In this document: positions 635-23,659 of the stretch, piece by piece
How positions within the stretch are numbered: position 1 is the stretch's first letter
Layout: every line of letters starts with the position of its first letter
Assembly: GCA_951406725.2 (NCBI GenBank)
Contig: OX597818.1
Location: 105,400,001-105,464,000, forward strand
DNA from: Octopus vulgaris
Lineage: Eukaryota
DNA: 64,000 nucleotides
Direction of reading: 5' to 3'
Translations under genes and position numbers: made by a program
The notes under the pieces: model-generated
Databases searched by the model: none
The model's input: the letters and a program-made list of their open reading frames with translations, nothing else
Told to the model about the DNA's origin: nothing

Positions 635-669
635 GTTTCCGACGAAGAGCTCCGCTCGAAACGTTAAAC
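635..669 (+). ncRNA. Minimal type I hammerhead ribozyme motif in a TA-flanked ~200 bp repeat (Penelope-associated type)
   Basis: GTTT-CCGACGA-A-GAGC(TCC)GCTC-GAAAC-GTT^AAAC; stems I and II pair, stem III palindromic (AACGTT); U4 is C in this copy; decayed second copy at 10813-10847 has CTGA. Confidence 0.65.
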
Positions 670-1504
670 CCTCCTTCCCTTCTTTCCTGAGCGTCAATAA
701 TACTTTAATTGTTCCACGTCCTGCGTTGCTGTGTTTTTTTCTCTTTTTTTTCTGTGTTTTCTTGTTTGGATTAACTTTATATATATATATATATATATAT
801 ATAGTCTACAGTGTGTTTGGTGTTAGAAGGGGGCATCCAGCCATAAAAACCCTGCCAAAACAGATACTGGAGCCTGGTGCAGTCTTCTGCCTAGCCATCT
901 CCTGTCAAATCATCCAACGCACGTTAGCATGGAAAGCAGATGTTAAGCAAATTTGTTCATGTGTGATGAACCAGTTACAAACACTAATGTCTTTTACTGT
1001 CCTCTTGTTAACTTCAGCTATACTGTCCCATTTTTTTTAATTGAATTCCTCCCTTCCTCTAGTTTTTCTGCTCCTTTCTCTTCCAAATCTTTACCTCTTC
1101 CCCTTTCTTCTTTATCCTTCTCCCTTATACTGATGCTTATCTTCATTTCCTGCCCCCATACTTGTACTATTCCTTCAGTGTTTTGCCTATCAATGGGCCT
1201 AATGAGAAAGCCTATCAATAACGAACCTACTAATGGCTACTGGAAACAGCTGTAAATCAAATTTACTACAATAAAGAAAAATATGTAATGACCATTATTT
1301 ATGCCTTGTCTTTTATATCATTCTGTGTAAAATCAGTATAACTGGAGCACAAACATGGATTTACAATATACAATAGTGATGAACTATAACCTCAGACCCT
1401 GCCACAAGATCACACAGGTTCTTTACTAATCTCAGCAATATTGTTAGCTTAATGTACTAACAGAGTTTATAAAGTATTTTGCCCAAAATGATAATCCCCC
1501 CACA

Positions 1505-1544
<40 letters not shown>

Positions 1545-1589
1545 TCAGAGGCAAGGAAAAGTAAATGAACAAAAAAACATTATGCCCCT

Positions 1590-2646
1590 TGTTCCATTAG
1601 TTGGAACCGAACCAGCACTCCAGTTGTTCAGACAATGGTATTTCCTTTGTCCTGTCAAAGACCACGATTATTAATGGTCGAAGGCAGTGAACTATGGCCC
1701 CCACACGGTCATGGAAAGTTTTAAAAAATTGAAATGCTGGGACAACGTTATAAATATGGCTAGCATTAAGTTAGTTGGTCAGTCAGCGAGAAACCATGAG
1801 AGGGTCAGTGTGAGCGGAGCGGACAAGGGAATGAGCTAGAGATGGTGGAGTCGGTGAGAGGCAGCCACAAAGATGACAGCCAGGGTCTAGAGAGAGACAG
1901 ACAGTGAGTGGGCAAGAGACAGGACGAGAGGTAGTAAGGAAGATGACAGTGAAGGGGCAGAGAGAGACATAAAGAAGCCGGACTACTATAGTGGGGGTTG
2001 TGATGTTCAGGGAGTGTTGCAGGCGTGGAACATGCGGTAATGTTTTTTATTTGTGTTTTGAATTTCGATGTTCAAATAGAGTCGATGTGTTGTTGTTTTT
2101 AAAAAAAAAGCAGTAGGAACTTTGAGAACTGTCATGTAAAAAAAAAAAGCGTGTTGTTGGCTGTTTTTAAGAGAAAAGAAAAGAAAGAAAAAAAAAGAAC
2201 TTGGAAATGTTTTAAAAAGGAGAAGGAAACTTTTTGATTGTGAACTTTGTGTTAAATGTAAAATGATGTGTCTTGGAAAAGAAAATCGAACAGTATTGTG
2301 TCAAATGTTCAATGATTTGTTTTTCAAACTCTGTCTTACGTTTAAATGCAATTGATTGTTCTTCGAACTCTGTATTATGTTTAAATGCAAATGATTGTTC
2401 TTCGAACTCCGTACATGATTTGTCAACCTTTGTTCTGAAATGCTTTGATTTCGTTTTGGAAAAAAAAAGCTAAATTACGCAACTTCCGCTGTCTCTTTCT
2501 TTTGTTGTGGTTGTGTTGGTTCCTGGCTGTGTTTGCCGCCTTCCCTTCCTTTCCGTGGTGGATTTCCGGTTTACTGAGTGTCGTTGTCGCGACTTAGGGC
2601 TCATGATGGAATCGGAAGGCCCTGGGCCCTTAGTGGCGGTGTAACA
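1590..2646. mobile_element. Possible solo LTR or other CpG-richer insertion
   Basis: Ends in GTAACA, has an internal ~39 bp tandem repeat (2310-2420) and is absent from the paralogous block at 25310-25320; left boundary and TSD not resolved. Confidence 0.3.
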
Positions 2647-2989
2647 ATATATATATAGGTGCAACTTTGGCATGTGGTCTACAAGGGAGATTACTTGGGG
2701 TTACTTTTAAATTATTTTGTACATACTTGGCATTGTAAATGTATTTTATCAAATTCTTACTATTTTAATAATAAGAAAATCATATAATAATTAAAATAAG
2801 TATGTAAACCACCCACCAAAGTAAATTTGCTCTTGGAGATAACACGGAAAATAGCACTAGCACAAAGTAAACTAAAAAGTAACCTAAAGTAATCTCCCTT
2901 TAAATTGTAGATCCCACGCTCAAGTTGCAGCTTTTTTTTTCTTACAAAATGATGTGAATTTAGTGCTGATTTCTTGTAAAAATGCAACT

Positions 2990-4040
2990 GCTTTCATCTT
3001 GCCATTGATCACATTGTAAAAATCTTTTGCCAACATCTTACAATCAACCTTGTCCCATTGCATAATTTAGGAGGATCTAAATATCTTAGAAGCCTAAATA
3101 GGACCCTTACCTTCATAAAAATTCTACATGGAGGAATTCAGAATTCCAGGTGGCTCAGGAGAATCAAGGAACTTTGTTGGGTAATGGACAGCTTGATTTT
3201 CATCAAGGACTGAATCAACTGATTTGCACTCTTTAATGATTGTTGGGATCTTATTTGTTAATCCTTGCAACTGTTTCATTTTTTTGAGCAAGAATTGCCC
3301 TTTCACACAACCATTTATGAGAACTACAATTATTACTTAAGTCTGGAAATACCCTGTTCTTCAATTCAACTGGAGAATTCACCATGATAGCAATATGAGC
3401 AAAGCTGATATCACCATTCCTATCAAATGGTACTTTCCCATTTCCTAATTGGAGGAGCCAGGTTGAAAATTGTTCTGCACATTGGTCCCCATGTAATAAC
3501 GCTCACACATTAGTATTGAAGGAGAATTTTTGTATTTTATTCCATAGGTGCAAAGAATTAATGCATGCTTTTATTTCATCAAATCTTCCTTGTCTTGGAA
3601 TGTCTGGTAATGTCTCTCTGAAGTCTTCTGATGAAATTCATGTAACTCCCTCCATAGATTTATTGTTGCCTCTGATGTCCTGTAAGATCTTACCAAGAGC
3701 TTCCACTGCACCTCTATGTGGCATGGTGCATTCATTCCAAATGATAAGGTGGCATTGGCACAACACTTTTAGTGAACTTGAATCTTTTCTTATGTTACAA
3801 AATGGACTGTCATTTGTGACCTGGTTTAGCAGTAATTTAAAAGCAGAATGGGCTGTTCGTCCTCCTGAGAGGAATAGTGACAGAAAAGCCAAACAATCCT
3901 ACAGCAACTGCAATTCTTTTTTCTTGCCTTACCTTGGAGAGAAGCAATGTTGTTACAAATGTTTTACCTGTGCCATCAGGAGCATCAAGAAGGAAAATTC
4001 CTCTGCTTTTTTCTGGTGATTGTGGAACACCGTATGCACA
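2990..4040 (-). pseudogene. Helitron PIF1-like helicase fragment, frameshifted (copy 1)
   Basis: FLLDAPDGTGKTF (Walker A), GGRTAHSAFKL, LIIWNECTM, YPTKFLDSPEPPG and PPKLCNGTRL-type motifs spread over several frames. Confidence 0.9.
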
Positions 4041-4970
4041 CACATAAACACAGACACATATACATACAGTATCAAACATGAGATGAAATGGATATGTGTG
4101 TGTGAGTGATAGAGAGCACGAATGAAGGGGTATGTTGTCATGTATACATACATAAATAAGCATACATATTTTTTGTATGTATGTGTGCATGTGAGAGAGC
4201 GAATGCCACTTAGACATCACTCACTCTCTCTTATGCACACATACATGCAAAAAAGATGTATGCTTATGTATTCATGTAAGTACACGTACATGACAACACA
4301 TCCCTTCACTCTCTCTCTCACACACACACATACATAAATGTATACCAACATACATACAAAAACACGTGTGTGTGTGCGACTGACTACAAATACCCAAATT
4401 TTTTGGGATGATTCGTGTTGAATTGCAAATTTTAATGTGATATTTGTGTAATAATGAAATCAAACCTGGAGTGTGTGTGTGAGTGAGAAAGAGAGGGGGA
4501 GAGAACATTGCAAACAATAAATGAAATAAGCATAAAATGAAAAAAATTGTCTCAATAATAATACATTAAAAATCTCTCGTATGAAATATTTGAATTTGTG
4601 AACTTAGTAAATATTTGTTTCAGTAATTTATTGTAGTTGTTTCGAAAGAGTAAATTAAAATGGAAAATTTCACAGTTGCTATGTCAAAACTGGAAGTTGA
4701 CGTTGAGAAACCTTTTTAAAGAAGTGAATCATAAATATAAAGCAATATTTATTTTTAATGGAAAAATAAACTGATGACCCTATTACGTATCCAAGTTTAA
4801 ATTATTCATGCATCCCAAGTTTTCTCAGGAAAAGCGAAAATACATACACGCCTTGATTGTTGGCCTATTTTGTGTGTGAGGAAGTTTGACAGCACTGCTC
4901 TTATCTGTACCATATTGAGCTGTTGGTTTCAGCCGGTATTGTAAAGAGAAGAGTGTCTAGTTGTTTTTTG

Positions 4971-5504
4971 TGCCAGCCTCGCCTGGCCCCGTGCCGGTGA
5001 CACGTAAAAGCACCGTCCGTTCGTGGCCGTTTGCCAGCTCTGTCTGGCCCCGTGTCGGTGGCACGTAAAAGCACCATCCGTTCGTGGCCGTTTGCCAGCT
5101 CTGTCTGGCCCTGTGTCGGTGGCACGTAAAAGCACCATCCGTTCGTGTCCGTTGCCAGCCTCGGCTGGCCCCCGTGCCGGTGACACGTAAAAGCACCGTC
5201 CGCTCGTGGCTGTTTGCCAGCTCTGTCTGGCAACTGTGTCGGTGGCACGTAAAAGCACCATCTGTTCGCGTCCGTTGCCAGCCTCGGCTGGCCCCCGTGC
5301 CGGTGACACGTGAAAGTACCGTCCGTTCGTGGCCGGTTGCCAGCTCTGTCTGGCCCCGTGTCGGTGGCACGTAAAAGCACCATCCGTTCGTGTCCGTTGC
5401 CAGCATCGCCTGGCCCCGTGCCGGTGACACGTAAAAGCACCATCCGTTCGTGGCCGTTCGCCAGCTCTGTCTGGCACCTGTGCAGGTGGCACGTAAAAAA
5501 CACC
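4971..5504 (+). repeat. Tandem array of nine ~61 bp units (A/B variants) in an RTE 3' UTR
   Basis: CACGT(A/G)AAA recurs at ~5001, 5062, 5123, 5184, 5246, 5307, 5368, 5428, 5490; runs directly into the RTE 3' tail (to ~5663). Confidence 0.95.
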
Positions 5505-5664
5505 CACTACACTCTCGGAGTGGTTGGCGTTAGGAAGGGCATCCAGCCGTAGAAACACTGCCAGATCTGACTGGGCCTGACGAAGCCTTCCAGCTTCACA
5601 GACCCCAGTTGACCCGTCCAACCCATGCTAGCATGGAAAGCGGACGCTAAACGATGATGATGAT

Positions 5665-6200
5665 CCACATCCACATAATGTAGGGTTCTTAATTTTTGTA
5701 GCAGGGCATTGAAGAGCTGTGGGCTTTCAAACCCTAAGCTATTGCAGTGCCTGGTCCTGAATTTAGATGGAGTGGATGGTGTCTTTGGTACAGTATAACA
5801 GTATCCAGTTCAGGTATTTGTGTAACACTCAATGCCAAAATTAGGTACTAGTCCATCCAGAATTTTTCATATGTAAATTATTACAGATCTGTCATGTCTT
5901 TGTCTCAATGAGTAAAGACAGTTTTTTCGGCCTCTCCCAGTAGCTCATCTGCTGCACTGTTACAATTTTTCTAGTGTAGTAACATTGGACTGCTTCAAGC
6001 TCTGCTGTTAGTTTGGCACTAAGTGGTGACCATAACAGAACAGTAATCCAGGTGGCAAAGAACAAAGATCCTCCACAGGGTCAACATAACTTCTTGAAGA
6101 ACCTTAGTAACCATCCTGCTAGTTGACTGCACTTTATTGCCATCTTGGTAATGTGTATATGAAATGCTGCATCATTACACATACTGATCCCCAAGTCATT
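5665..6200 (-). mobile_element. Decayed CR1/L2-like LINE ORF2 fragment
   Basis: Minus-strand translation contains VLLWSPLSAKLTAELEAV and QQMSYWER, matching the post-RT region of CR1-like elements. Confidence 0.65.
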
Positions 6201-6289
6201 ATATATACTATAAAATGATTATATCAGTGGCCTAGGACTGAAAAATGACCATATAGGCAACATTATTTTTTTTTACATATATAATTATA

Positions 6290-8085
6290 AAGATGAGCAA
6301 GGATATCCAGCGTTGCTCGGGATTAAAATGGCATAGTTTGTGTATAATATATTACAGTTATGTTGAAACAGGTGGTATGGGAAAGTGCAGCATTGACAAC
6401 AAAACATTTAAGGAGTAAATGATGGGCTAATTCAACTAAGCAACATGCTATGCATCTGTTTGGAGTATTTCAGGCCCTAACCTGTCATGGAAAATTGGGG
6501 GTGGGGGTCATGTAATTTTTGAATGCACCAAAAAGCTGTCAGTGGATATACTGTCTTTTGCAGCAGTTGGCACTGTGTCTAACATGGCCCATCATCTGAA
6601 ATTTTGACACCTCCTTCAGGTTTGTTGTCCTACATCACTCATTAAGTAAATTTGGAGGAACTGTTGTTGTTCATTTGTGGGTAACAGGGAACCAATGAGG
6701 TAATAGACTTGCCCTTGAACTTTGATGCCGGCATAAATTCATGTTTAACTATCTTCTTAGATGCAGTAAACGATGTCATTTGAAATGCAGAGTTATATTG
6801 TCTGATATTGTTCAGAAAATACTTTGACTGGATATAAGTGCCTTCTAGAGGATCCATAAAACATTGAGAAGAAGCTGGTAGTGCTGGCAAAGTTACCTGA
6901 CCGCCTGAGCAGCACATATCATTTGTTTTATTTGAAAATTTTAAAGCTCTACAGAAACAACAATTTATGTTTAGCATACCAGTTTGGACAGAGTTATCAT
7001 TTTTATAAGAACAGGATGGATCATACCTGAAAAGAGCTTCAGGGGTTGTGAAAAACGAATATGTATGTAGTCTGTTTCTGAGAGCTATTCTATTGGGCCT
7101 CTGTCTAATCATTAAAACATTGATTTAATGACCCAGCATTAAGAGCTGCAACATGCATTGGCTGATCTTGAGAAAATCTCATCTCACTTCTCTTTTCAGA
7201 CTCTCACCTTTGGTTTTCTACAATCCTCCTTGCTCTATACTTGTTTCTGAAGAGATTACGTCTTCTCTTTGGTGGCATATTTTTTCAATATTTTAAACAA
7301 AAAATTATGAACATAGAAAGAAATTATACATTAATCCCTATTTTGTAAGCAGTTGTATATATATATAGTATGCTTTTATTTTTGTATGCAGTATAAATTA
7401 ACCAAATAGAAGCCCATGTATGAACCGCTAATTTAACGATAAATGCCACAATAATTATTATAGATAAATTTCTTAATATACATATATTATGCACATGTAT
7501 TAAATATTAATTTAAGGGTAAATATGTAACTGTAAATACCTTGCAACTGCAGTAATAATTATCAACTGGTAACTGAACGGTATATGAGTATTTTTATATA
7601 CATTGGACCTGCCATCTCATTGTTTTTGTCAAGAGTTTCACCTCCAGCCATTTGTTATGTCAACACATACACTAACACCATTCTGCTGTGGTGGCTCATT
7701 TTGTGTTTTTTCCCGCTCATTCTGTAAAACTTTATTTGAAGAGAGCAGAAATTGAAAGAAGAGAAAGCGAAAAGGACCACGAGAAAAAAAGTGAAAGATG
7801 TATGTACGTGTATATGAAATGGACGTATGTGTGTGTGTGAGAAAAAGAGAGAGATAGAGTGAGTGAGTGAAGGTGTGTGTCGTGATGATTGATATCTTTT
7901 AAGATACACACACATAGAAAATGTGACATCATATAAAATGTTTATGATAGTTGATTTATGGAAAAGATTATGATGTTAATTTTTGAAATGCAAATATGTG
8001 AATGGAAATTAAGTTTAATTTGTAGTACTGAATCTTTTGATACACCATACGTCAAAATCAGTGACACGGTTTTGAAATGCAACAA
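6290..8085 (-). mobile_element. Helitron remnant (N-terminal Rep region and 3' hairpin)
   Basis: ORF 6642-7112 has CCFCRALKF..MCCSGGQVTLP and FLNNIRQYNSAFQMTSF; decayed 3' hairpin CCCGAGCAACGCTGG near 6305-6321; shares AATTTTTGAAATGCAAATATGTGAA with the Helitron at 43358. Confidence 0.85.
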
Positions 8086-8086
8086 C

Positions 8087-8980
8087 ATTCTTCTTTGTGA
8101 TCTTCACCAAAATTTGCAAGCAGATGCTCAATAACGTTGAACCTCATAAAACACATGACCATATTTATGAGTGGTAGAGTGGCTTGATGATGCATTAAAG
8201 TGACAAATCTCTTAATAAGGTTTAGTATTAGAAATCTCACATTGCTGTCCAGAGATATTTCTAACAGATGAAAGAGTGGAAAATAAATTGTTTATATAAT
8301 ATAGATGTGTATGTGGGCATGCAATAAAAGACCTAGTTTAAAATACATTTTCAAACTGGACCCATTCACTATAGGTATGAGGCATGCTTCTTATACATCT
8401 AGTGTCTACTGTAAAATAAAGTCAACTAACAAATTAGGATTACACCAAGACAAACCAATGGATTAAAGAATGAAACAGGATACTAGAAATGGCTTCTGCA
8501 GCAGAGATCCTCACAGAGTGAAATAGATGTACAATGTAAAATCTTATTACATTGTAAAATATAGATGAAGAAAAAAATTTTTTCATTTTTCATCTTATAA
8601 GATATTTAAAAGAAGTATTTACAAAGATATTCTACTGAATAATTTTAACATTTTTAAAAATTGCTGAAATGAATAAGTTAAAAATAATATTCCTGAAAAA
8701 AGGAAAAGGACAAATGAAAAAATGTAACCAAAAGTAATTATTTTTTTCTATTTTTGTTTTCTTTCCCTTCCTTTTTATTAACCTTTTATTTTTTCTGAAA
8801 TTTATTATGTTAACATGGGAGAAATATTTTCTTCTGAATAATTTTAAGGTCATAAATTCTTTGCACGGGTTTTACTTAAATTCTGACAAATTAATTAAAA
8901 GTGCACCAACAACTTTATCACCCAGACAACATAGATTTGTATCAATGTCACTTTGAACCAATCATGCAAATATTAGAATG
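8087..8980 (-). pseudogene. Duplicated fragment of the hnRNP U-like gene (part of a SPRY exon plus upstream intron)
   Basis: Colinear with 49833-51225 apart from a ~415 bp deletion and smaller indels; retains VIEHLLANFGEDHKEE versus VIEHLSANFGEDHREE. Confidence 0.9.
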
Positions 8981-9270
8981 TGTACTATTAATTTTAAACA
9001 GAGATATTCTGTGCATCTAAACTCATTTAAATATGAAGAACATAGCAAATCCACATCCCTAGCCAACCACATACACCTTCTGATAAATAGGAAAGTACCA
9101 TATAGGATATTCTGGGCCATAATAGATTCTAGTGTCCCATACCAAGGCCAGCACTCCACATGTGAACTCTGCCTGAAAACCCCTCTAAATATTAATTTAT
9201 AATTCACTGCAATTACTCAATAAACAACATGAATCATTTTCTACATGCAAGCATAAGTTCTTTCACAATT
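8978..9270 (+). mobile_element. Penelope-like element, GIY-YIG endonuclease C-terminal fragment
   Basis: FKQRYSVHLNSF...TSLANHIHLL...WAIIDSSVPY...CELCL then LLNKQHESFSTCKHK, resembling the PLE endonuclease C-terminus. Confidence 0.75.
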
Positions 9271-9567
9271 TCAGATTCTTCCAAAGGTCAAAATGCAAGC
9301 AAAATCAACACACATAACCCTTGCCTATAGATATCCACTGTCATAACAATACAATCCACTAGCTAGCTTTAATTCCTTAAATTTAAATTTTTAAATTTTT
9401 AATTTGACTTTTAAATTTTAATTCTTTAATTTGTATCCTTTATTCCTTTAATTGTAGTTTTATCCTATACATACCTCCTTAAGCTAGGCATCTATTTTTA
9501 GCTATCCCTACTGACCACTCCACATCTAACCTAGATTTCATCTATTTAATTAATAGATATAAATACC

Positions 9568-9680
9568 TATTTCTTTATTACCCACAGAGGGCTAAACACA
9601 GAGGGGACAAACAAGGACAGACATAGGTATTAAGTCGATTACATCGACCCCAGTGTGTAACTGGTACTTAATTTATCAAA
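9568..9680 (-). mobile_element. SINE 3' fragment (same family as 10476-10708)
   Basis: Reverse complement of the GATAAA..AAGTACCAGT..CTGGGGTCGATGTAATCGACTTAA..TTTAGCCC segment. Confidence 0.8.
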
Positions 9681-10475
9681 TACCTTCCACTTCCACTTCA
9701 CCAAAACCTTAATACCTGACTGCTCAACCTGAACCAGACACTTACTTACAAGAATAACACTGGAATCTTAGCTGTATCATTTATATTTCTTATTTTTTAT
9801 TTTTATTTTTCATTTTACATTACTTTTACTCTCATTCATTCTTTTCCCCACACCCATCCCATTCCTGTCTTTTCTCTCTTTCTCCTTCTTCTCTCACTTC
9901 TATCCACTCACTCACTACCCACTTCTGTCTTTCTCACTCTATATACCCATGCAGACCATTTACTTACTAGCTAAACACTTCAACATGACCATATCATTCA
10001 AAATACTGCCTGGATTTACTTAGGATTATACCTAAGGGCCTATACTTTCATGGAAATACAGACCAACCTCCATACCCTCTGGAAAAAGATGAACTGTGAA
10101 CCTTATTCTCCTTTCTGTATTCTTCTATCTACTTTTAATTCAAATTCACCTTACCCTAATTAAATTATTATAAATGACATGAGATACTTGTCCTACATTG
10201 GTTTTCATTGTCCTTTACCTCTAATATATACCTGCTAACATGGAAACACAATACAGATCCCTAGCTCCAGCCTCAGGTGTGAACTTGGAACCATATAGGT
10301 GACCAACTATAGCACTAAATCAGCATACCTATTCACATAGATCACCAGTGAACTAAACCTCTCAGACTGGTAGTTAGTGACTTTAGGATCAGGAGTAGGA
10401 GGACAACCAGAAGACGACCAACATGGAGAAGAAGGATCTGGAAGCTTAAAGATCCTGCGATATATATATATTAAA

Positions 10476-10708
10476 GGCGGCGAGCTGGCAAAATCGTTAG
10501 CATGCCGGGCGAAATGCGTAACCGTATTTCGTCTGCCGTTACGTTCTGAGTTCAAATTCCGCCAAGGTCGACTTTGTCTTTCATCCTTTCGGGGTCGATA
10601 AAATAAAGTACCAGTTACGCACTGGGGTCGATGTAATCGACTTAATCCGTTTGTCTGTCTTTGTTTGTCCTCTCTATGTTTAGCCCCTTGTGGGCAATAA
10701 AGAAATAG
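10476..10708 (+). mobile_element. tRNA-derived SINE with Nin/Deu-like central domain
   Basis: B-box-like GAGTTCAAATTCC, then CTTTCATCCTTTCGGGGTCGATAAAATAAAGTACCAG; inserted in a TA run; older copies at ~17690-17820 and 18000-18160. Confidence 0.8.
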
Positions 10709-10949
10709 ATATAAATATATATATATATATATATACATATGTAACCGCGTGTGTACCATTGGCGATTTTTTTTTCCTCCGTCTTCTCTTCCTTAGATCTT
10801 TCCTTTTCCTATGTTTCTGACAAAGAGCTCTGCTCAAAACATTAAATCCTCCTTCTTTCTTTCCTTTCCTGAGCATCCAATAACACTAAATTTGTTCCAC
10901 GTCTTCGCGTTGTTGTGTTTTCTCTGTTTTCATGTTTGGATTAACTATA

Positions 10950-11132
10950 TCATCATCGTCGTTTAACGTCTGTTCTCCATGCTAGCATGGGTTGGACGGT
11001 TCGACCGGGGATCTGGGAAGCCAGAAGGCTGCACCAGGCTCCAGTCTTATCTAGCAGTGTTTCTACAGCTGGATGCCCTTCCTAACGCCAACCACTCCGT
11101 GAGTGTAGTGGGTGCTTTTTACATGCCACCTG

Positions 11133-11135
<3 letters not shown>
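10950..11135 (-). mobile_element. RTE-type 3' UTR/tail copy
   Basis: Reverse complement of the 1-241 element. Confidence 0.85.
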
Positions 11136-11192
<57 letters not shown>

Positions 11193-11253
11193 AATAGTAA
11201 TAGTAGTAGTAGTAGTAGTAGTAGCAGTAGTAGTAGTAGTAGTAGTAGTAGTA

Positions 11254-12379
11254 GGGAATATAATTCCAAACTTACAGGGTAAAATTCAATTTAGCAATTC
11301 TAAATCTAATTTCACAATATATATATATATAATTTAGAGAAAAACCTCTATTAAACAACTCAATAGTGAAAGACGTTATTCAGACCATATAGAAAAGATA
11401 TACTATAAAAACCTTATTCTAATAATCAATAAAGTACATAAACAATAAATAGTAAATAGTAGTAAAAAGACTATATGCGTTTCATGGCTATATTTTCAAA
11501 TAGATAATAAAACAAACTCAATTCGATCTAAAATTAAATCTATTTAAAAATATAGTCACTCATCAGGTCTAAAATAATAATAATAATAATAGAATAAATG
11601 TACGTATCTTAACTCATGCTTATTATCAAATAAATATAGAAAAATATGTGTATTAACTATAAATAATTGAAAAACATTTAACAATATTTCTTAAAATAAA
11701 AGCATAACTTATCTTATCAAAGAATTTCTGTTAACTAAAAATTTAAATGTAATACATAGAACTTAGCATTTATAAGAAATATATCACGTGAAAATATGGC
11801 ATAAATAAAAAATTATAGAATAAAAAGATAGAAATATGTATTTAAGCTATTAAAATTACAAACTGTATTTTAGCTGTGAGAATAAGAAAAAATTAATTGT
11901 AATATACCATTTACTCGAAAAACTGTAAAATCTAAATAATTTAAAACAAAAATACATAATATACATAAATTAAGCTAAATTTCTATAATTTAATCTATTT
12001 TCATACATTAATTTATTTATTTTATAAACATCTGAGTTTCATCTTATTCTAATTATGTAATATACACTATATAATCTGGTGCTAATTTATACACATTTTA
12101 CTACTAAAAATTATAACTACAGCAATTAGTAACATAAAACAGGGTTTATATATATACACAAATTAGCTAAACTTATTATATAAGTAATTTAACTTACGTC
12201 TACATTTAATTTTTCATTTTTTCAATTAAGAAATCATTGACAGATAATATAGGTAAAAGAATATCGTTACTTTCTTCTAATTTTGAGATTTTCCCAAAAC
12301 GCACACCTTATAATGAAGCCCTGCAGGAAGCAGGATATAGTAGTAATATTAAATTCTTTAATAATTCTAATTCTAATTA

Positions 12380-12383
<4 letters not shown>
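11254..12383. mobile_element. Rearranged Penelope-like element remnant between microsatellites
   Basis: + strand IGKRISLLSSNFEIF..PYNEALQEAGY resembles the PLE RT thumb; hammerhead on - strand at 11468-11570. Confidence 0.7.
11468..11570 (-). ncRNA. Type I hammerhead ribozyme with long stem II
   Basis: AGAC-CTGATGA-[~22 bp stem GTGACTATATTTTTAAATAGAT / ATCTATTTGAAAATATAGCCAT]-GAAAC-GCAT-ATA^GTCT; stem I AGAC/GTCT is perfect. Confidence 0.75.
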
Positions 12384-12428
<45 letters not shown>

Positions 12429-14146
12429 ATGTGTGTGTGTGTATGTATATATGTGTGTATGTATGTATGTATGTATATATTCCTTCTTAGGCTCCCAACA
12501 CAAACCAGTACACATAGCCTTTTCTTCTCAAAATGTTGATCTTCTGGAATTTCTTCCCTGACTGTTTGTCTTGCAGCTGTCAACTTGCAACTTATTCAAG
12601 AGAAATACTAATTTCGTTGACCTTACTGGTCTCAGAGGGACCTGTGAAAGCTATGACCAGAGCCCCTCTCTCAAGAGCAAGGCAACAAAAGAGATAAAAC
12701 AAAAAAGGAAAAAAGAAAAGACCGGATTCCTATCATTTGTTTTATAACAGTATTGTTGCAGGAGTTTTGTTTGACAGTGTCATGTGACCGAAGTCAGCAG
12801 TCTTGGGTTGAAGAGTATTTAACGAAGCTGCTGCCTTTTCAGGAAAGTGAAGTTTGCTTTGTTTCAATGACAATGTAATAATAGTGGTGCTACTGGCAGG
12901 GTTTTGAGAATTTATACAGTCTGATACAGATGGAAAAGCCAATACTCTATAAATATTTTCTCAATTTTGTTTTGTAATAAGCTGGAGAAGGCTGCTTAAT
13001 TATTGCTAATACAAACTGTCAAACTAATTACTATGTTAATAGGTGGAATTATATTCTAATATACTTCCTTAGTGACAAAGGGAATGACATCCTGCAAAGA
13101 AACAAGAGGAGTTAAATATTTCCTATTTCTCAGAAACAGCAGAGTGCCAGAATAAACGGTAAGCAGAAGTGTGGCTGACTAAATTCTTTTCACAACCAAG
13201 GAATCCTTTTATTTAAAGGTATTTTCTCCTAGACTCAAAGCTTTTGAAAGGTACGATCTACTCAATAAGCTTATTTTGTTAACTAACAACAAACTTGTCT
13301 CAGCTCAGTTTCATCGTTTAAGCTGGAAGATATATGAAACTAATTAATTATATGTTTTACACTGCAGCATTGTAAAAGTTTTGAACACATTTCACAGACA
13401 CTCCCACTCTCCCACCATATTACCTCTGTTTGCCCCACCACCCACTGGTACCTGTTAATCCTAAATTAGGAACAGCGGAACAGCTGCTTTACAGTATTAG
13501 TCTTGTTTCTCTGTGCTCTGTGTCCAAAACTCACCAGTGCTACTCTTTCACATTCATGTAGTCAAATCCTGTTTCCTTTATCCCCTAAGGTTAATGATGC
13601 ATCTGTCAACCCCAACTTTTTCAACTAACAATTTTCACAAACCACACATCTCTAGCTTGATTGAATTATTTCTAGTATTCTTCATCTTTACCTTTCAGCT
13701 CTGTGTAAAACATAGGCTCTCAACATATAACTTCCAAGTCCTTCTCTTATCTTGTGTAATTGTTCTCTCTATTGGCATCCCTAGAAGAATGTCATCAGTC
13801 ACTGAGACAGAGAAATTCCTTCCTTGCCTATTGAAACAGGTAGGTTTGTTTTGCTTTCTCTTGATATTTTCATTGCAAAAAATGTTTTTAATGCAGCAAA
13901 CCTGTTAGCCATATACACAACCACCAACCTGAAAGACTATATATTTTATAATCAGATGAAGCTAATTGAGCCAGATTTCTACAGCTGGTTGCCTTTCTTG
14001 TTACTGACCCTTACCTGCTTCCAAGCAAGATAATGTTTCCCCATAGCCAGTCATGTTTATGCCAAATATTGGGAATGAATGACATCCATTTATAAAACTC
14101 ACGTGATGTCAAGACAAGGAAACACATCTGCGCTCACACATAGATT

Positions 14147-14195
<49 letters not shown>

Positions 14196-15999
14196 TGGAG
14201 GAATAAAGGTAGAATGAGGTATTTTTGCCTCTTGGCTGAAACAGCTGTAAGTTATTTTCCCAATTTATATTCCTGTATGTTATATTTTAATAATTACTGG
14301 TATCTGTATATAATAATATATTTTTATATGTAAAGCATAATATGTTATACATGTATATTCTTGTAATTGTCATTTTAGTAAATAGATAAGTTGACATAAT
14401 ATGTCTAGAAGTTGATGAACCACCTATTGATCCCCTCCATTTTCTTATTGCTCTCTCTCTCTCTCTCTCTCTCTCGAAACTACACCTGATTATATATACA
14501 CTTTAGATGAGTTGTAGTGCACCTGAGCACTGTACACAATTATTATTATTATTATTATTAAAACTTCCATGCTTTCTGAGATTCGCCAACACTACACCTG
14601 ATTTCCTCCCCTCCATACACACACAAGCATGTATCTGACTCATACATTGTTCGCTTTCCAGACATTTGTATATTACTGCATACACTTTATACGCACTTTC
14701 TGACAAGTTGTGGTGCACCTGAGCACTGTATACAATAATTTCATTATTATTATTTATATATATATATATATATATACACACAAACACATACATACACACC
14801 CAACACATACACACCCATGGCCAGTCATGTTTATGCCAAATATTGGGAATGAATGACATCCATTTATAATCCTCACGTGATGTCAAGTCAAAGAAACACA
14901 ACTGCGCTCACACATAGAATTTATATATATATATGCACACACACATATATAAATTTAAAATAATTAGAGGCATAGATTAATGAAATAATACACAAAACAT
15001 TCAGTAACAACGATAAACATAAAAAATACACAAAGAAATTAACTCTAAAATATCTCTTGTAGCAATATCTAGTAGTCACTGTTAATTATTGTCTGAGGGT
15101 TCAATGAAGATATTTGCTTGTGATCTCGTTTTCCACAACCTCACACATACAAAGAATACGTATTTGTAACTTGCTATTATTTGTTCTAAAACAAATTATG
15201 GTGTCTATCACCTCCTTCACTGAGTTTCAGTGGACTTCTTGTAAAGATGTTGTTGTTGTTGTTTAGTCACAAACTGTTTCTTGGACAACATTATCCATTG
15301 TGTCATTCTTTAAAAGTAATAGGATATTTTTTAGGAGTGATTTGGCTGGTACTTCAAGCAAGTAGATCAACCACATTGATGGTCTCTGGCAGAACATTTG
15401 CTTCATGGCATGAAACTTTTAGTTATTTATTACTGATAAGATAATCTGTGTAAATATCATCAACTCTCATACACATTAGGTAGCAGGGGGTCCTGAACCT
15501 ATCAAAAATGAACAATTTACTATCTAGGCTTCTAATATAGAATTACCTGCAGATTCATATGGATGAACATTCCTTATGATTGACATGTTAATCCTATGTT
15601 CAGCTGAAGATTCTAAGGGTCCAATGAAGATAGTAGCACCATGCACATATACCATATCAACTACTCTATAAAGAACATACCTACACTTTGCAATAGCCTA
15701 TACATGAGAATGCTCCCATGAAAATGCTCCTGGAGAGCATTCTTATGTATATGTTGTTAACAGTTCTAGTTGAACATATGCATTGGATGGCCTTATCTTT
15801 TTCTGAAATGACAGCTTCTGTCACTGAACACTACAAAAGACAGACAGGCAAATACCTACCTGTCTTTGTATCTTAGAAACCCAGCACCCTTTGAAGCTGA
15901 CCTCCTAGATCAAATATCTGTATTTACTTACATAAAATTTCATAAGTACACTAACCTTTTCTGAGTTAAACTAACACTAGAAAATTTAGAAAATCAAAG

Positions 16000-16350
16000 A
16001 AACAGATTTGTCTTTTCTGATAAGACTAAACATGTATAAGTAGTAGAGCGAGATAGATATGATGAATTGTTACATGAGGCTATAGAAAATATAAAAGGTA
16101 AACCAGACTTATAATGACATTGATGAAGAGGCAAAATATCTAAGTAAATTATGTCAAATTAACAATATTATAGAATGTTAACCTAAAAGGGAAGCATCTA
16201 TAGTTTTGAAAGACTTTAGATCTGACTTCACAAAATAATGCACTAGTAGGCTAGTAAACCTTACAAAAATGGATTAGTAGCCCCAAAATACTGTGGAATA
16301 TAAACAATACTAGGGAAGTTAAGATCATTCAATTTGATATAATGGACTTT
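16000..16350 (+). mobile_element. Decayed Penelope-like RT fragment
   Basis: PKREASIVLKDFRSDF..SRLVNL and IIQFDIMDF resemble PLE RT motifs (ITLKDHK..CRLINP; QFDIVDFY). Confidence 0.55.
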
Positions 16351-17620
16351 CATGCCTTCAAGTCAATCTTCATCACTTTGTCCCAAGTTTTCCTTTTCTC
16401 TCTCTTCTTTGGGCTTCATTAACTTGGAGGGCTAAGCACTTTTGTATGCAGCAATAACTTTCCATATGCATCACATGCCCATAGCAGTGCGATCTCCTCT
16501 CTTGTATATTACACTTGATTTCTTTTATACTCAGTTTTTTCCTTTAAGCTCAATTATATTCTAGCATTCATGCACATCAACATTACATATCAATCAGATC
16601 ATACTAGCATAATTTCTTTCTAATTTTTTGCTAGCCTTCAACATTCTTATTACCATTCTTACTACCATGCAATGTAACAGTCCTAACCAGAAGCATCCCA
16701 CAATGAGCCCTTCACACTGAGGGGAAAGATCCTTGTTGCCACTCGAGGTAGTAGCTTCCTGAACGTTTCCCAACCCATTCTTATCCTGATTAAACTTTCA
16801 GAGCAAACACCTCCCTTGCTAATTATGTCTCCTAGGCAACAAAAGCTATCAACTACTTTTAGTGAACCATCTGAGCATTTAAGAATCCTTTTTTCAGTAC
16901 ACCCATAGTACATATTTCTCCAAATCATTCTATGAGTATGCCTTTGATTTTGGTACACCTTTTATATATTCATAGCTTATACTAGGTACAGTGTATTGAG
17001 TTTATACTTACTCCTTTACTACATATCAAGCAAAGCTAGTTTCCTGATGATACTGGGATCCTATCTTCTTTCCTATCTAGCAAAACCTTAGTCTTTGTTA
17101 AGTTTACTCTGATGTCTCAATTTTAGGTTTGGCTTCCATGCCAGAAATTTCCTCTCTAATTCCACTCTAGATTCAGATTTGAGAACTAGATCTTCAGTAT
17201 ATAGGGTTTCTTATGGACAGAAATTCCTCTGTGATGGCCTGTTGAGCTAAGATAAATAGGAGATGGCTGAGGACCAAGACTTGAAGGACTCCTACCTTCA
17301 CATCAAATTTGTCATTGAAATCATTGTTGACTTTCACTTTACTTACTGCATTATTGTACATAGCTTGTAAAGACCTCACAAGCCATTCATCTACCCTTAG
17401 TTTCCTCATTGACCACCATTCTACTGAATGTGGTACTTTATCAGATGTCTTCTCCAAGTAGAAGGAGAGAGAAAGTTATCCTCAAAACAAAGACTTAGCC
17501 TTAATGTGTGCAACAGAATAAACTCTGCTAAAGTCACCCAAGGATCAGGTGGTAGTGTTGAACTGGGTGAAGGATTAAGTCTATTGCATAGGAAGGCCAA
17601 AGTGGGATTTGAATTCAGAA
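16350..17620 (-). mobile_element. Decayed RTE LINE RT fragment
   Basis: KVPHSVEWWSMRKLRVDEWLVRSLQAMY, KVGVLQVLVLSHLLFIL and VDSFCCLGDII...RIRMGWETFRKLLP. Confidence 0.85.
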
Positions 17621-18339
17621 TGGAAAGAATTGGGAAAAATACCACAATGCATCCAGACCAGTATTCTTCAATTCAGCTGAGCCAACACCCTAGAATGCTA
17701 CTTTGATTTTTAACAAAAAGTATGAAAAGCAAAGTTGACCAGCAAGATTTAAATTCAGATCAAAAAGAGTTGGAACTAATGTTGCAAGACATTTTATTTG
17801 CTGATCGAGTGATCTTTGCCAATAATATGCATTCCTAATATCTAGGCATAAAAATCTGAATAAAAAAACAATGTATATCGTACATGAATAAATATGGTAT
17901 ACTTGCATCTCAGTAACCCAATCAGTTATATTGCTTGGACACACTGTAAAAACAATTATAACTAATCTCTAAATTAAGTAGAAGGCTACACATTTGAGAG
18001 ATGGATAAAGACAATCAAATAGACTCACCTCTCCCTCGGTACTTTCCCAGTATTTATTTTATCAATACTGGAAAGATGAAAGGACAAAACAACTATAGCA
18101 ATATTTGAACTCAGAACATAAAGATATGCAACTGAATACTGTAAGGCATTTTGTACAATACTGTAACTATTCATTCCAACTAGCACTCTGTAGGGACACT
18201 GTATAATTGGTGGGGGTTTGTATTAATTTTATTTATGTTTCTTAATTTTAAAAATCATTGAATTAAAATAATTAAAAGATTACCATTTCCTATGTTTGTC
18301 TTTGCAGAAACAAACATCAAAATAAAGAACATTGTAACC

Positions 18340-19558
18340 ATGAAGCTTTTACTGATAGTTTTTATATGCATTATGTCAATATGCATCGTTAATACTACTT
18401 GTCCGGAATCATGCCAGTGCAACAAAGAACAAACAGAAGTTTCATGTGAGAGACAATCTCTAACATCAGTCCCTAAATCATTGCCGACAACTACAGAATC
18501 TCTCAAATTGGCTTATAATTTACTACGAGAAATTACAGCAGAGTCTTTCAAAAATTTAGTTAAACTGAAAAAACTGGTTTTAACATCAAACAAAATTTCA
18601 GTTATCAGAAAAAATAGTTTTAAATACCAATCCAAACTGGTCTCTCTTTACTTGATCAACAATATCATCCATACCATTGAAAATGGTTCTTTTGTTGGGG
18701 CCATTTCTTTAGCTAGTATTTATCTGAATTCAAATCAACTAAAAGATGTTCCGTGTCTTTATGGTTTAATCTCATTGAAACAGCTACTCATAAATGCCAA
18801 TCAAATTTCAGAAGTATTCTTTCCTGCTGAATATAGGCAAATAAAAACTCTCACTTATATAAATCTTTCTAATAACAAAATAAACCGTCTTACTGTTAAT
18901 TCTCTTATGAATTTAAATGAGTCAAATATAAAGAAGATCTCATTTTCAAGAAATCAAATCACAAATATTGAACCAGAAACATTTCAGGTCCTAAGAAACA
19001 TAGATTGTTTAAAAATTGGAATAAACCCTTTCACAGCAGATGTCCTTAAAAATTCTCTCTATGCAATGAGAAATTTTAACCTTCGCTCTTTGGATCTTTC
19101 TGGATTAAACAAGATAAATGTTCTTGCAGGTAATATATTTGAAGCATTACAAAACACTTCCCTTCAAACATTAATCTTAAGTCGCAGTAACATCTCACAT
19201 GTCAGTAGCGACACATTCAAACTATTAGATTCTCTTGAAGTTCTGAATCTAGAATTTTGTCAAATTACCAGTTTAGAAGAATCTACATTCACAAATTTGA
19301 CTCATTTAAGAAGGCTCGTTCTGAATGGCAATTACATATCTAAGCTAACAGCAGTTTTCCCATCGAAACTACTTTATTTGAACTTGAACGGTAATAAGAT
19401 TCAGAGAGTCCCAAGCAAAGTTTTTGATGAGCTGTTTCATTTGACAGAACTTCACCTACAGTACAATAAAATTGTACAGTTCGACAAAGATGCATTTATA
19501 GGCCTGGAGAATCTCAAGATTTTGAAGTTACAACACAATCGTATTAATGTTATTCCAG
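18340..19558 (+). CDS. Toll-like receptor, coding exon 1 (signal peptide, LRRNT, LRRs)
   Basis: MKLLLIVFICIMSICIVNT signal peptide, CPESCQC LRRNT, many LxxLxLxxN repeats; donor CAG|GTGAGT at 19558/19559 (phase 1); acceptor TTTGCAG at ~18307 implies an upstream UTR exon. Confidence 0.93.
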
Positions 19559-20329
19559 GTGAGTAATAAAAGTTATCTTTTAAAGCAGACAAATAGCATT
19601 ATGCTTTATTGAGTCTCAAGAAAGAGACACAGTTGATTTTGATGGTGGTGTGCCACCCTCCTGGCTGAGGAGTAAAAACAAAATGCCTCAGTAGATATAG
19701 TGCTGAACAACTAATCCTTATGTTAAAGTATTCTTCAAGCACTTGTATATTTAGGTACAATGCTTGTTTATTTAGGGAGTGCATTTATGTATTTAGGGAA
19801 TTATACTTGTCTATTTAGGGATTTTCTTGTCAATTTAGCACTTAATTTTATATGCCTCAGTATTCAGTATCGTCTGAGAATGCTACTTATCAGAAACTAT
19901 CTTTTCATCTATTTGGAGCCTGAAATATGGAGGGCTGCACCATTTAAGCTCTATGAACAGGCTGTATCAAAGGCATACTGCTATAAAAAGTGACAAGGGT
20001 AAGAAAGTTAGATGATTTGCTATATAAACTTTAATTAGAGGTATTAGTTAGAGTTTGTGAGGAGAGACTACTGCAATGGATGTAATTTTCTAGATGAAGA
20101 AAAACCCTGTTATTTAATATTATAGCATCAGGTCAGTCATGACTGAGCAGAACAATGACTGTTGATGTTCCAGCTTTGAGCAACCTTTCCTTTTAGTGGG
20201 TATTTCTAGTGCTACATTTGCCAATGCTTCCTTCCTTTTTTAAGACAGAGGGCTTGGAATTTTGAGGAAAGTATCATGGTTTGTGAATACATTATACATG
20301 AGGGAATGAAAGAAAGTAGTAAAGTTCCT

Positions 20330-20562
20330 TCCTGAGTCTTGTAGACTCATAGGGATAGTTTCCATGGCATGTATATATTCCCCACCTAGACAGGACACTA
20401 GTCTGTTGCAGGATTACTCATTTTTGCCAGCCGAGTGGACTGGAGCAAAATGAAATGAAGTGTTTTGCTCAAGAATACAACGTGTCAGTTGGTCCAGATA
20501 TCAAAACCACGATTTTACAATTATGAGTCCAACACCCTAACCACTATGCCACATCCCTCCAC
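20330..20562 (-). mobile_element. tRNA-derived SINE in the TLR intron
   Basis: Minus strand begins with an A box TGGCATAGTGG and a decayed B box, followed by TTGAGCAAAACACTTCATTTCA. Confidence 0.7.
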
Positions 20563-20845
20563 TATGCATGAGGGAAGTAGAACTAAAATCAAGATAAAAT
20601 AAGTTATTGAAGGGTAAGATACATATGTTTTGGGTTTATAGAACAACTTATTCTTACATCAATGCATAATTGATATATGAACGAAGTAAGGTGTGAGGAA
20701 AAGGTGCCGCCATCGGTCAAGGCTGCTGCACAACTAATGTGCAATGCCTGGAACAGGGTATGAGGATAATGAAAACATGTACCTGACATTATGATTATAG
20801 AACGTTGTGATGTATGATGCAATGTTTATCTATTATTTCTTGCAG

Positions 20846-22125
20846 GTGGTTTATTTTCTACATTGGCTGGTCTGTCAGATTTACGACTTGGTTCCAATGA
20901 CATAACTACTATACCTGAAGAAATTTTCATCAGACTAAAATCCCTGAGTATTCTGGATCTATCCAATAATCATATTTCCAAGATGCCCAAAAGTTTTTCA
21001 AAAGAGTTAACTCGAATAAGAGAATTATATTTAGATTCTAACAAACTTGGGAAATTCTTATCTACTGACAAAAAGGGCTTCCTGCTGAGTGGTCTTAAAA
21101 ATTTGGAAAGAATTGATTTATCTTATAATGAAATTCAAGGCCATTTGTCTAAGAAAATCTTTCAAAACAATAAACATCTGAAATATATCAATTTCAAGGG
21201 AAATAAAATTACTGGATGGGAAAACAACACATTTGAGGTAACAAATTTAACACTGATGGAACTTGATGTCAGTAATAACTTCATAATTACTTTTGATAGT
21301 GATTCTTTAAAGTATATAAACAGAAAGAAAAAGTTCAACATTACTTTGAACCCATTTGCATGTGACTGCAATCTTCGTTGGTTCAGGGACTGGTTAAATA
21401 CTACAACAGTAGATATTGTAGACAAAAACGACTTGATGTGCAACAGTCCTCCAGATTGGCAGGGCAAGAAATTACTTGATTTCAGTCGGTCAAAGATAGA
21501 TTGTACTGACTATACGCTTTACTATATCTTAGCTGGTGGAGGTGGAGGTTTTCTCTTAACTGTTGTCATAGTTATATTTGCATACACTAAACGTTGGTAC
21601 ATCAAATTTAAGCTGTTTAAACTTTATCAGTATGTACAGAAATCAGGCAATGAAAATGAGTGTGAAGCTGTACCTGGAGATGACATGTATTTTGATGGGT
21701 ACATCAGTTACTCTGACAAAGATGGTGAATGGGTTGAAAAGTATTTGATGCACACGTTTGATAATGGAGAAAATGGAGAAAATAAGAACAATGGAAACTT
21801 TAAACTTTGCTTCCGAAACAGGGACTTTGCTTATGGAAAATATATTATTGGAATGATAGAAAGTTCTCTGGCTGTGAGTAAGAAAATGATAGTGGTTCTA
21901 ACACCATATTATAAAAAAGACAAGAGATGTGAATTTGAATTGCAACTTGGTATTATGAAGCTTAATATAAGAAATGTGATGCCTATTGTGCTCAAAAACT
22001 TACAACCAAATCAGATTCCCAATAGTCTGAAAGAAATCTTTGAAACAAATAAATTTATTGAATGGGACAATAATGAGTATGCTACAAATTTTATAAAACG
22101 TAAACTGGAAAATTTCCTTAATTAA
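20846..22125 (+). CDS. Toll-like receptor, coding exon 2 (LRRs, LRRCT, TM, TIR)
   Basis: Acceptor TTCTTGCAG|GT in frame with exon 1 (..VIPG-GLFSTL..); NPFACDCNLRWF LRRCT; hydrophobic TM; TIR boxes FDGYISYS, RDFAYG, CEFEL, FIEW; joined protein 832 aa. Confidence 0.95.
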
Positions 22126-22162
22126 CAGAACCTCTAAATATATATAGTTCATAACTATTAAG

Positions 22163-22211
<49 letters not shown>

Positions 22212-22527
22212 TCTTTAAGAGTCAGCTTGTAAATTCATGATGCAATATAAGCCAGTTATTTCGGTGGTATAAAGACAAATTAAAAGATAACTTAGAGTGA
22301 AAACTTTGAAAATCTTGCTGGAGAGAGTGCATTTTTCCAGTTTCCAAATTTCAAATTTCAAAAGGTACTTCATCCAGAGTAGTTACTGGAAAAGAGGAAA
22401 AGAATCAAGAAAACAAAAGTCTTCCTGCAAAGCATCATTGTTCACATTGTAATTTTCCGTTTGTTGTCTTTTTATTTAATCCTGAAAATATTTTATATGT
22501 AAAGCAAGTACTCATTAATTTTTTACC

Positions 22528-22586
<59 letters not shown>

Positions 22587-22650
22587 TCAGGGTGAATACT
22601 TGATAAATGTAAGCACCTGTATATGCCAGTTAGTGGCATAGGTGATAGGA

Positions 22651-22958
22651 TATATGTATCAAATGAAATAAATGAAAAACAGGACGCAAAGGATTTAGCG
22701 ATACATATGTTTTGGGTTTATAGAACAAATTATTCTTACATCAATGCATAATTGATATAATAGATAGATTGTACGCGGCTGAAGAAGGTTTTTGATCTAT
22801 CTATTATATCAAATTTTTGTTGTTTTTGTAAAATCTCAGAAAATAATTAAAAATTCACATTTTTTATCAAATTATTATGTAAGAATAAGTTGTTCTATAA
22901 ACCCGAAACATATGTATCGCTAAATCCTTTGCGTCCTGTTTTTCATTTATTTCATTTA

Positions 22959-22967
<9 letters not shown>
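22651..22967 (+). mobile_element. TA-flanked fold-back element containing a hammerhead motif (22775-22920)
   Basis: ~90 bp inverted arms (22651-22741 / 22877-22967) and an inner 18 bp inverted repeat; GCGG-CTGAAGA-AGGTTT...AAACCC-GAAAC-ATAT-GTA^TCGC. Confidence 0.75.
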
Positions 22968-23018
<51 letters not shown>

Positions 23019-23021
23019 ATC

Positions 23022-23654
23022 TATAGTTCATAGATGAGAATCAGATATTCCCAATATAGAATACACTTAGTAGTGCTCAAGAGATTTAAACTTGAGCAGG
23101 TATAGAAATAATTGTAGGGATAAGAAAGTTGAACAGATCAATATATAAAGTATATCAAATACATGAAATACAAAAAAATGTATATATATGTTTACATACA
23201 AAAAGGTCCTACTTACAGAGAATACGAATAACATAGAGAATTAAAGGTGTTGAAGAAAACTAATACAAATCCAACAGCTGTTTCTGGGGGCTCAGTGGTT
23301 CAAAATAATGTTTGTAGATTAATTCCATTGTAGAATGAGACTAGCCTCCATCTTCAGGGAAAAGATCTTATGTTTGAGGTGTTGGAGGAAAGAAGTTCAA
23401 AGATGGAATGATTTTTGTGGAGAGTTAAGTGTATTAGCAGGGAATTGGGGAGGTATTCAGAGAGAGAATAGTAGAAGGAGAAAATAAATTTCATGTAAAC
23501 ATATGTACATTTTTGTATTTCATGTATTTAATATACTTTATATATTGATCTGTCTAATTTATCCCTACATTTACTTCTATACCTGCTCAAGTTTAAATCT
23601 TTTGAGCACTACTAAGTATAATCTATATGGGACTATCTGATTCTCATCTATGAA

Positions 23655-23659
<5 letters not shown>
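23022..23659 (-). mobile_element. TA-flanked fold-back element with ~175 bp arms and a central hammerhead (23270-23360)
   Basis: Arms 23022-23197 / 23493-23659; minus strand TCC-CTGAAGA-TGGAGGCT...AGCCCCCA-GAAAC-AGCT-GTT^GGA. Confidence 0.8.

Follow-up and report, generated by a model that had tools for sequence, protein, structure and literature searches.

What kind of element carries the hammerhead ribozymes of a 64,000-nucleotide stretch of the Octopus vulgaris genome (contig OX597818.1, positions 105,400,001 to 105,464,000; hereafter the window)? From the sequence they had been read as a dense set of non-coding retroelements at (TA)n microsatellites, comprising at least four unrelated hammerheads (at 635, 11468, 22775, and 23270) and three relics (1199, 10813, and 14238), with decayed Penelope fragments nearby. 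We set the window in its 2.8-Gb genome, the assembly used for all own-genome searches, and conclude that the four hammerheads are very probably the 3' terminal repeats of Penelope-like elements (PLEs), one of Neptune type and three of the Hydra clade, which are truncated at their 5' ends, often inverted, and inserted in (TA)n. A PLE end of this kind is also the likely identity of the sequences at 1199 and 14238.

Scanning the window with a type-I hammerhead descriptor that permitted stem II to reach 250 nt returned three intact cores, at 639 (+), 22779 (+), and 23357 (-), compared to a mean of 0.025 and a maximum of 1 in 200 local dinucleotide shuffles. The motifs are thus genuine, as originally claimed, and do not occur merely at shuffled-sequence frequency. 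Judged by the type-I features (CUGANGA, GAAA, NUH, and stems I to III), the cores at 22779 and 23357 are complete and that at 639 has a C at position 4. In the copy at 11468 (-), both core boxes are preserved and stem II measures 76 nt, but the stem III palindrome is mutated. The features are incomplete at 1199, 10813, and 14238. An Rfam scan of the window gave 40 matches at an E value of ≤1, with no hammerhead family among them. Self-BLAST of eight regions revealed no more than two relationships: 10813 matched 635, and a fragment at 20618 matched 22775. The four main hammerheads are therefore unrelated at the DNA level, as the original prediction had stated, and the window holds six families: A (635 and 10813), B (11468), C (22775), D (23270), E (1199), and F (14238). 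The account of the three relics needs correction: 10813 is a decayed relative of family A, 1199 and 14238 are the 3' halves of 5'-truncated copies, and the heptamer that had been taken for the core at 1199 sits within the family E stem II and is not the family core.

Each of these families is dispersed throughout the genome. Own-genome searches yielded 907 to 1,620 first-look candidates for each family; we scored 40 and fetched 15 to 30 of them. Copies of a family share a common 3' end, vary in their 5' extent, and frequently bear the 3' end a second time in inverted orientation; in family C, a tail of ~70 nt is optional. Among 30 loci per family, a few of which overlap, inverted copies numbered 1 in A, 4 in B, 9 in C, and 2 in D, and a script found two same-strand copies within ~3 kb at 2 loci in A and at none in B, C, or D, missing one direct duplication in family B that is visible by eye (L077/L080). 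The features by which PLEs are recognized (5' truncation, an inverted 5' copy, an optional tail, and a pseudo-long terminal repeat upstream of the open reading frame [ORF]) were all observed, and at L191, L199, and L304 the repeat upstream of the ORF bears a hammerhead. A fixed 3' end, a ragged 5' end, and inverted arms make up the anatomy reported for PLE insertions (PMC8557442).

Family A contains the most uniform copies, 35 of the 40 scored being identical across 141 nt, and its core has 5,877 exact matches genome-wide (control, 0). Judging by the identity of the scored copies, the family is young. Of the first 100 copies listed, 87, by hand count, carry both a C at core position 4 and a GUU triplet. 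These two changes are expected to slow hammerhead cleavage, and the family has amplified despite them. Assembled contigs of four runs, which we guess to be RNA, cover family A; ends, strand, and circles are not readable from contigs.

The families are tied to PLEs by what lies upstream of them. For this comparison we chose the copies that reached furthest upstream, and the fractions given here therefore do not represent a random sample. In family A, a Neptune-type ORF was found upstream on the same strand in 5 of 6 long copies, behind a CA-rich 3' untranslated region (UTR) of 2.6 to 3.2 kb; the linked ORFs carry DKG, a C-x5-CxxC linker, and, at the C terminus, a GIY-YIG domain. In family B, the end of a GIY-YIG ORF is contiguous with the copy at L070 and L072, and the window copy retains the final GIY-YIG ORF codons together with an inverted piece of reverse transcriptase (RT) thumb. 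ORFs of the B lineage, up to 828 amino acids long, contain DKT, CxCX5C, CxxC, and CxH, and their RWK-like motif reads RIKWK. In family C, 4 of 6 long copies are preceded upstream by one and the same Hydra-type nuclease, which has CxCX5C, CxxC, and CxH. Both long copies of family D (2/2) have a Hydra-type nuclease upstream, one of them with an RT thumb as well; these copies are decayed, and the Hydra-clade motifs match only partly. Taken together, the motifs DKT, CxCX5C, CxxC, and CxH point to the Hydra clade for B, C, and D. Two further candidates, a Hydra-type ORF inverted beside the family C copy L308 and a second one behind a truncated family C segment (L406/L441), belong to another family and were not counted. 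The expected link to autonomous PLEs was thus found for A to D and not reached for E and F. The description of the elements as non-coding is not supported, because A to D run into PLE ORFs and the element at 11468 itself extends to ~12230 with GIY-YIG ORF codons.

Proximity to (TA)n tracts, on which the original prediction drew, is weak evidence in this window because 33% of its initial 24 kb is no more than 250 nt away from one. The element ends offer better support: (TA)4+ was present at 29 of 29 3' ends found in A, 21 of 27 in C, 9 of 18 in B, 7 of 14 in D, and 4 of 13 in F (ends not located at 1, 3, 12, 16, and 2 loci, respectively), against a background of 8.75% of 15,600 bins. In addition, positions 12442 to 24970 of the window are a tandem duplicate, 97% identical, of a Toll-like receptor unit just upstream (G000:C5:105390241-105399610), and this paralog has an uninterrupted (TA)n tract at the position of the family C element. 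The empty site is therefore direct evidence that family C inserted into a pre-existing tract. Relative to the duplication, the family C element is younger and D, F, and the 20618 fragment are older; since the paralog spans only that part of the window, the check does not extend to A, B, and E. Such targeting is already published for the Hydra clade: nearly every family in it, among them one of Octopus bimaculoides, has been reported to prefer (TA)n (PMC8557442).

Within the window, family A occupies 553 to 777 (+). Flanked by (TA)n tracts, this copy is the 3' end of a Neptune-type PLE truncated on its 5' side, and its hammerhead (635-669, +) combines a C at core position 4, a 12-nt stem II domain, a 4-nt palindromic stem III, and a GUU triplet. 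Its decayed relative, with mutated core boxes, lies at 10769 to 10930 (+) and is 77 to 80% identical to 592-776. Family B (11254-12230, -) consists of the 3' UTR and final codons of a Hydra-clade PLE; its hammerhead (11468-11570, -) has a 76-nt stem II domain made of a ~21-bp rod and an inner hairpin, with stem III mutated in this copy, and the inverted RT-thumb fragment (12222-12366, +) is fused to its 5' end. Family C (22583-22958, +), a Hydra-clade PLE end, comprises a tail and inverted arm (22583-22760) and a direct arm with the hammerhead (22775-22920). A 60-nt fragment of the same family (20618-20677, -) lies inside an intron of the Toll-like receptor gene and recurs in the paralog. Family D (23022-23657, -) is a Hydra-type PLE end with inverted arms at 23025-23176 and 23510-23656, and its hammerhead (23270-23360, -) has a 66-nt stem II domain, an 8-nt palindromic stem III, and a GUU triplet. 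Hairpin RNA could possibly form from the inverted arms of 22583-22958 and 23022-23657, and nothing in the present results speaks for circular RNA. The copies of E (1187-1505, +) and F (14195-14450, +, also in the upstream paralog) are 5'-truncated, keep the 3' half of the hammerhead, and lack an ORF link; their families have stem II domains of ~96 and 97 nt. As for the Penelope fragments that had been placed at 8978, 12237, 16000, and 45860, the first two are borne out by scores against a Hydra-type ORF of the same genome: a decayed GIY-YIG fragment at 8996 to 9172 (+; E value, 0.002) and 12279-12359 in the RT-thumb piece. The other two were recognized by eye, namely, a possible decayed Hydra-type RT N-terminal fragment (15990-16270, +) with a DKT-like motif and no tblastn match, and a decayed PLE ORF of another type (45860-46850, -), presumably Penelope/Poseidon-like, which is not linked to the six families and behind which no hammerhead was seen.

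Stem II domains are 54 to 97 nt family-wide in five of the six families (B, 56 to 97 nt; C, 65 to 66 nt; D, 64 to 66 nt; E, ~96 nt; F, 97 nt, as read from individual copies and, for E and F, from intact relatives) and short only in A, at 12 nt. Related ends of one lineage have domains of 16 to 17, 37, 56, and 76 to 97 nt. The original prediction had given a range from 11 to over 100 nt, and the long variants proved to be family-wide, with the exception of the longest: the 119 nt at 22775 is owed to a ~65- to 70-nt insertion, in this single copy, of an unrelated high-copy repeat (22811-22880, +) at the hairpin apex, and the inverted arm of this family C element lacks the piece. A genome search with the whole 22775 motif had retrieved only this foreign repeat, which exposed the insertion. 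At other loci (L002 to L030), the same repeat often forms inserts of 70 to 100 nt within unrelated repeats, with one boundary in common.

To count such forms genome-wide, we used an exact pattern (core box, gap, GAAAC-RNNY-GT-H) with its reversal as a control; these patterns ignore stem pairing, and one site may count twice. Gaps of 40 to 120 nt gave 46,920 matches against 1,008 for the control, a 46-fold excess, and gaps of 8 to 39 nt gave 12,479 against 361, so that long forms outnumber short ones by ~3.8:1 once controls are subtracted. With one fixed palindrome, the counts were 6,432 long and 2,436 short (controls, 4 and 2). Among 30 fetched loci, stem II domains ranged from 44 to 110 nt; most fold as long hairpins, 13 have at least 3 stem I pairs, and a few look spurious. 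In terms of exact-pattern matches, the long stem II is thus the majority form in this genome, and its prevalence had been understated. Local density is another matter. By hand arithmetic, ~1.4 matches are expected per 64 kb, and 2 of the 3 window cores fit the pattern by reading; the window is therefore about average, and the high density that had been claimed for it was not observed.

Is the long arm structured? Folding of stem II exceeded that of shuffled sequences in family B (median z, -6.5; n = 24), F (-3.4; n = 9), G (-3.3; n = 3), and C (-2.1; n = 36). Family G, absent from the window, was met in flanks; it has 3,315 exact matches (control, 0) and, in several copies, a Hydra-type nuclease upstream. 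In its basal stem II, 6 of 11 pairs have changed on both sides, giving 37 cells against 16.3 in shuffles (0/500), a control that common ancestry alone can beat; in slid controls, the paired fraction drops to 35 to 54%. In predicted ensembles, the basal stem is favored for A, for F and G, and for the window copy of D. When homodimers were folded in ViennaRNA, other pairings prevailed, and we drew no support from that result.

Several results, beyond the choice of linked copies and the ancestry effect just named, weigh against the view that the window's hammerheads are PLE ends with a conserved long arm. No ORF was reached in 5 long copies of E and 13 of F. The Neptune-type ORF matched Pfam RVT_1 and GIY-YIG only weakly and gave no PDB match, the Hydra-type ORF had no Pfam match, and the clade names rest on motifs and not on a tree. 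On the structural side, folding excess was weak in E (median z, -1.2; n = 5) and D (-0.9; n = 15). Family C showed no covariation above shuffles (438/500, two-sided cells), and RNAalifold recovered for it neither the hammerhead fold nor any two-sided change. In the family copies of C, D, and E that were tested, other folds were often preferred, with basal stem II probabilities of 0.05 to 0.6. That the matches are simply accidents of AT-rich, repeat-rich DNA is nonetheless hardly conceivable. Such DNA and a wide gap do raise random matches, as the reversed controls attest, but chance is at odds with the 3 cores found in the window against 0.025, with the 46-fold genome-wide excess, and with the 131 distinct matches in 1.24 Mb of loci (chosen for holding repeats), three shuffles of which gave 0, 0, and 1. 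It is also improbable that the window holds non-coding, non-autonomous retrozymes whose hammerheads trim them to unit length and that are then circularized and copied in trans by a PLE enzyme. The absence of ORF links in E and F would suit such elements, and the retrozyme reading may apply to these two families, but the upstream sequence shared by family F copies lengthens with each walk, as a long UTR would. Animal retrozymes have been proposed to derive from PLE ends (bioRxiv 10.64898/2026.07.22.740005), and arrays do occur in the genome. One of them, L455 (G000:C1:5011015-5012894), lies beside (TA)n and is built of a 534-nt unit repeated identically 3.5 times in tandem, with a type-I hammerhead that has a 50-nt stem II domain in every complete unit; it has no PLE ORF match and, by its sequence, fits the non-LTR retrozyme definition. 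Another locus, L457, has 545-nt dimers in both orientations adjoining a Hydra-type nuclease fragment. The window itself has no tandem array, same-strand pairs are as rare as counted above, 5' ends are ragged rather than of unit length, and four of the six families are ORF-bearing PLE 3' ends. The separate, retrozyme-like mobilome of the original prediction thus finds no support here.

If the hammerheads are PLE ends, the long stem II could still be a selected module of PLE RNAs, acting as a protein-binding arm or as a substitute for a missing loop-loop contact. We regard this as a tentative idea that is probably wrong. The predominance of long over short forms, the compensatory changes in family G, and the strong folding of B, F, and G speak in its favor, as does the report that the hammerhead of an Anolis PLE requires protein for cleavage (PMC11167929). 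In the same report, however, hammerhead cleavage was dispensable for insertion in vitro. Moreover, both the length and the sequence of the arm vary freely across families, related ends manage with 16 to 17 nt, family A, whose identical copies are the most numerous among the window's families, has 12 nt, and no motif common to the arms was found.

Read as PLE ends, the elements suggest the following course of events, in which nicking and target-primed copying are taken from published PLE work. The GIY-YIG nuclease would nick a TA repeat and the RT would likely stop early, leaving a 5'-truncated copy; a PLE protein has been reported to nick AT-rich DNA and to begin copying within its RNA (PMC11167929). 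Cleavage would be slow and would require that two hammerheads join via their palindromic stem III, possibly with the protein of the element as a further requirement, in line with the slow cleavage of PLE hammerheads as dimers (PMC4209133; PMC6765202). The arm would be retained as a helix in master elements, single genomic copies being mostly inert leftovers. Stem II may have lengthened repeatedly in these lineages, its tip accommodating additional sequence and its base remaining paired. In engineered hammerheads, stem II accepts insertions.

The system as such, with hammerheads on PLE termini, insertion directed to TA repeats, and inverted truncated copies, is published. Families B, C, and D resemble the Hydra clade, Hydra-1_Obim included, as described by Craig et al. 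(2021, PMC8557442): an RT followed by GIY-YIG, DKT, the CxCX5C linker, CxxC, and CxH; (TA)n insertion; inverted 5'-truncated copies; and a type-I hammerhead with a near-palindromic stem III, U at the cleavage site in 10 of 26 listed rows, and a stem II whose base is often mismatched. They differ in that the stem II domains published in its File S2 are 12 to 26 nt by hand count, compared to 54 to 97 nt family-wide here, and in their TG- or T-rich 3' UTRs of 1 to 3 kb, the whole published elements generally being <3 kb. Family A shares with Neptune-type elements (PMC8557442, PMC4209133) DKG, C-x5-CxxC, a C-terminal GIY-YIG, a minimal hammerhead, a 4-nt palindrome, and a microsatellite bias, and departs from them in its long CA-rich 3' UTR and its C at position 4 with GUU. 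Like the minimal PLE hammerheads of Cervera and de la Peña (2014, PMC4209133), those described here are type I, with a short stem I, an extra base before stem II, and a palindromic stem III, and occur mostly as single copies of truncated PLEs with some inverted pairs (100 to 700 bp apart in that study). The highest count quoted there is ~9,000 per genome, against tens of thousands of matches here. Non-LTR retrozymes (Cervera and de la Peña 2020, PMC7229834; Li et al. 2026, bioRxiv) likewise have a type-I hammerhead, are mostly ORF-less, and are connected to PLEs, but they are defined by tandem hammerhead units and circular RNA, whereas the window copies occur singly or in inverted form, and four of the families continue into ORFs. 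A literature search for a long stem II in PLE hammerheads, with incomplete coverage of supplements, returned nothing beyond the Selaginella PLE-X rows (PMC8557442, File S2), whose ~50-nt stem II domain, flagged as non-canonical, is a precedent. Those rows represent two plant families lacking the endonuclease (EN) and located at 28S rDNA, in contrast to the many animal EN-bearing families here, with domains of up to ~110 nt. The long-armed form thus appears to be a structural variant of a known system, present in large number and with predicted cleavage.

Other features of the region may be noted briefly. The Toll-like receptor gene (18262-22125) has LRR and TIR domains. A minus-strand gene at 31785 to 49658 ends in an exon of 1,152 amino acids that is of low complexity, rich in G, S, R, and D, and repetitive; its upstream exons resemble what we take to be an hnRNP U-type SPRY and P-loop protein. 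Two copies of a presumably Helitron-like repeat, which retains traces of helicase-like coding sequence, lie at 2650-4020 and 25317-26700, with 92 to 99% identity over the listed stretches. Positions 4971 to 5498 hold a tandem array (61 bp, 8.6 copies) that heads a common repeat resembling short interspersed elements. A long AT-rich hairpin at 47022 to 47214, with 89-nt arms that are 84% complementary and 15 nt apart, is probably a miniature inverted-repeat transposable element or an inverted retroelement end. Among the PLEs themselves, the 3' UTRs of Neptune-type elements (L151 and L301 to L306; 2.6 to 3.2 kb) are largely degenerate CA repeats and those of Hydra-type elements (L199, L307, and L391) are TG-rich; truncated copies with such UTRs would seed simple-sequence tracts genome-wide.

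Given that the 2014 descriptor limits stem II to 3 to 7 bp and loop 2 to 3 to 10 nt (PMC4209133), it cannot find the long forms. About four-fifths of the exact-pattern cores with an 8-nt palindromic stem III exceed this descriptor and Rfam in stem II length, and the search strategy for such ribozymes should change accordingly. The families also provide a natural series of stem II domains, from 16 to ~110 nt and partly within one lineage, with which to probe the role of the hammerhead in PLEs. If the arm is merely tolerated, its length is a matter of annotation and not new biology. There is a bolder possibility, which we consider rather unlikely on present sequence comparisons: the dominant hammerhead of this genome may be an active long-armed form (40 to 120 nt, ~46,000 matches, dozens of PLE families) that standard descriptors and Rfam miss and whose arm was selected for protein-assisted cleavage or ribonucleoprotein assembly. 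In that case, counts of animal ribozymes would fall short several-fold for genomes of this kind, and a hammerhead may be present in PLE families that were reported without one.

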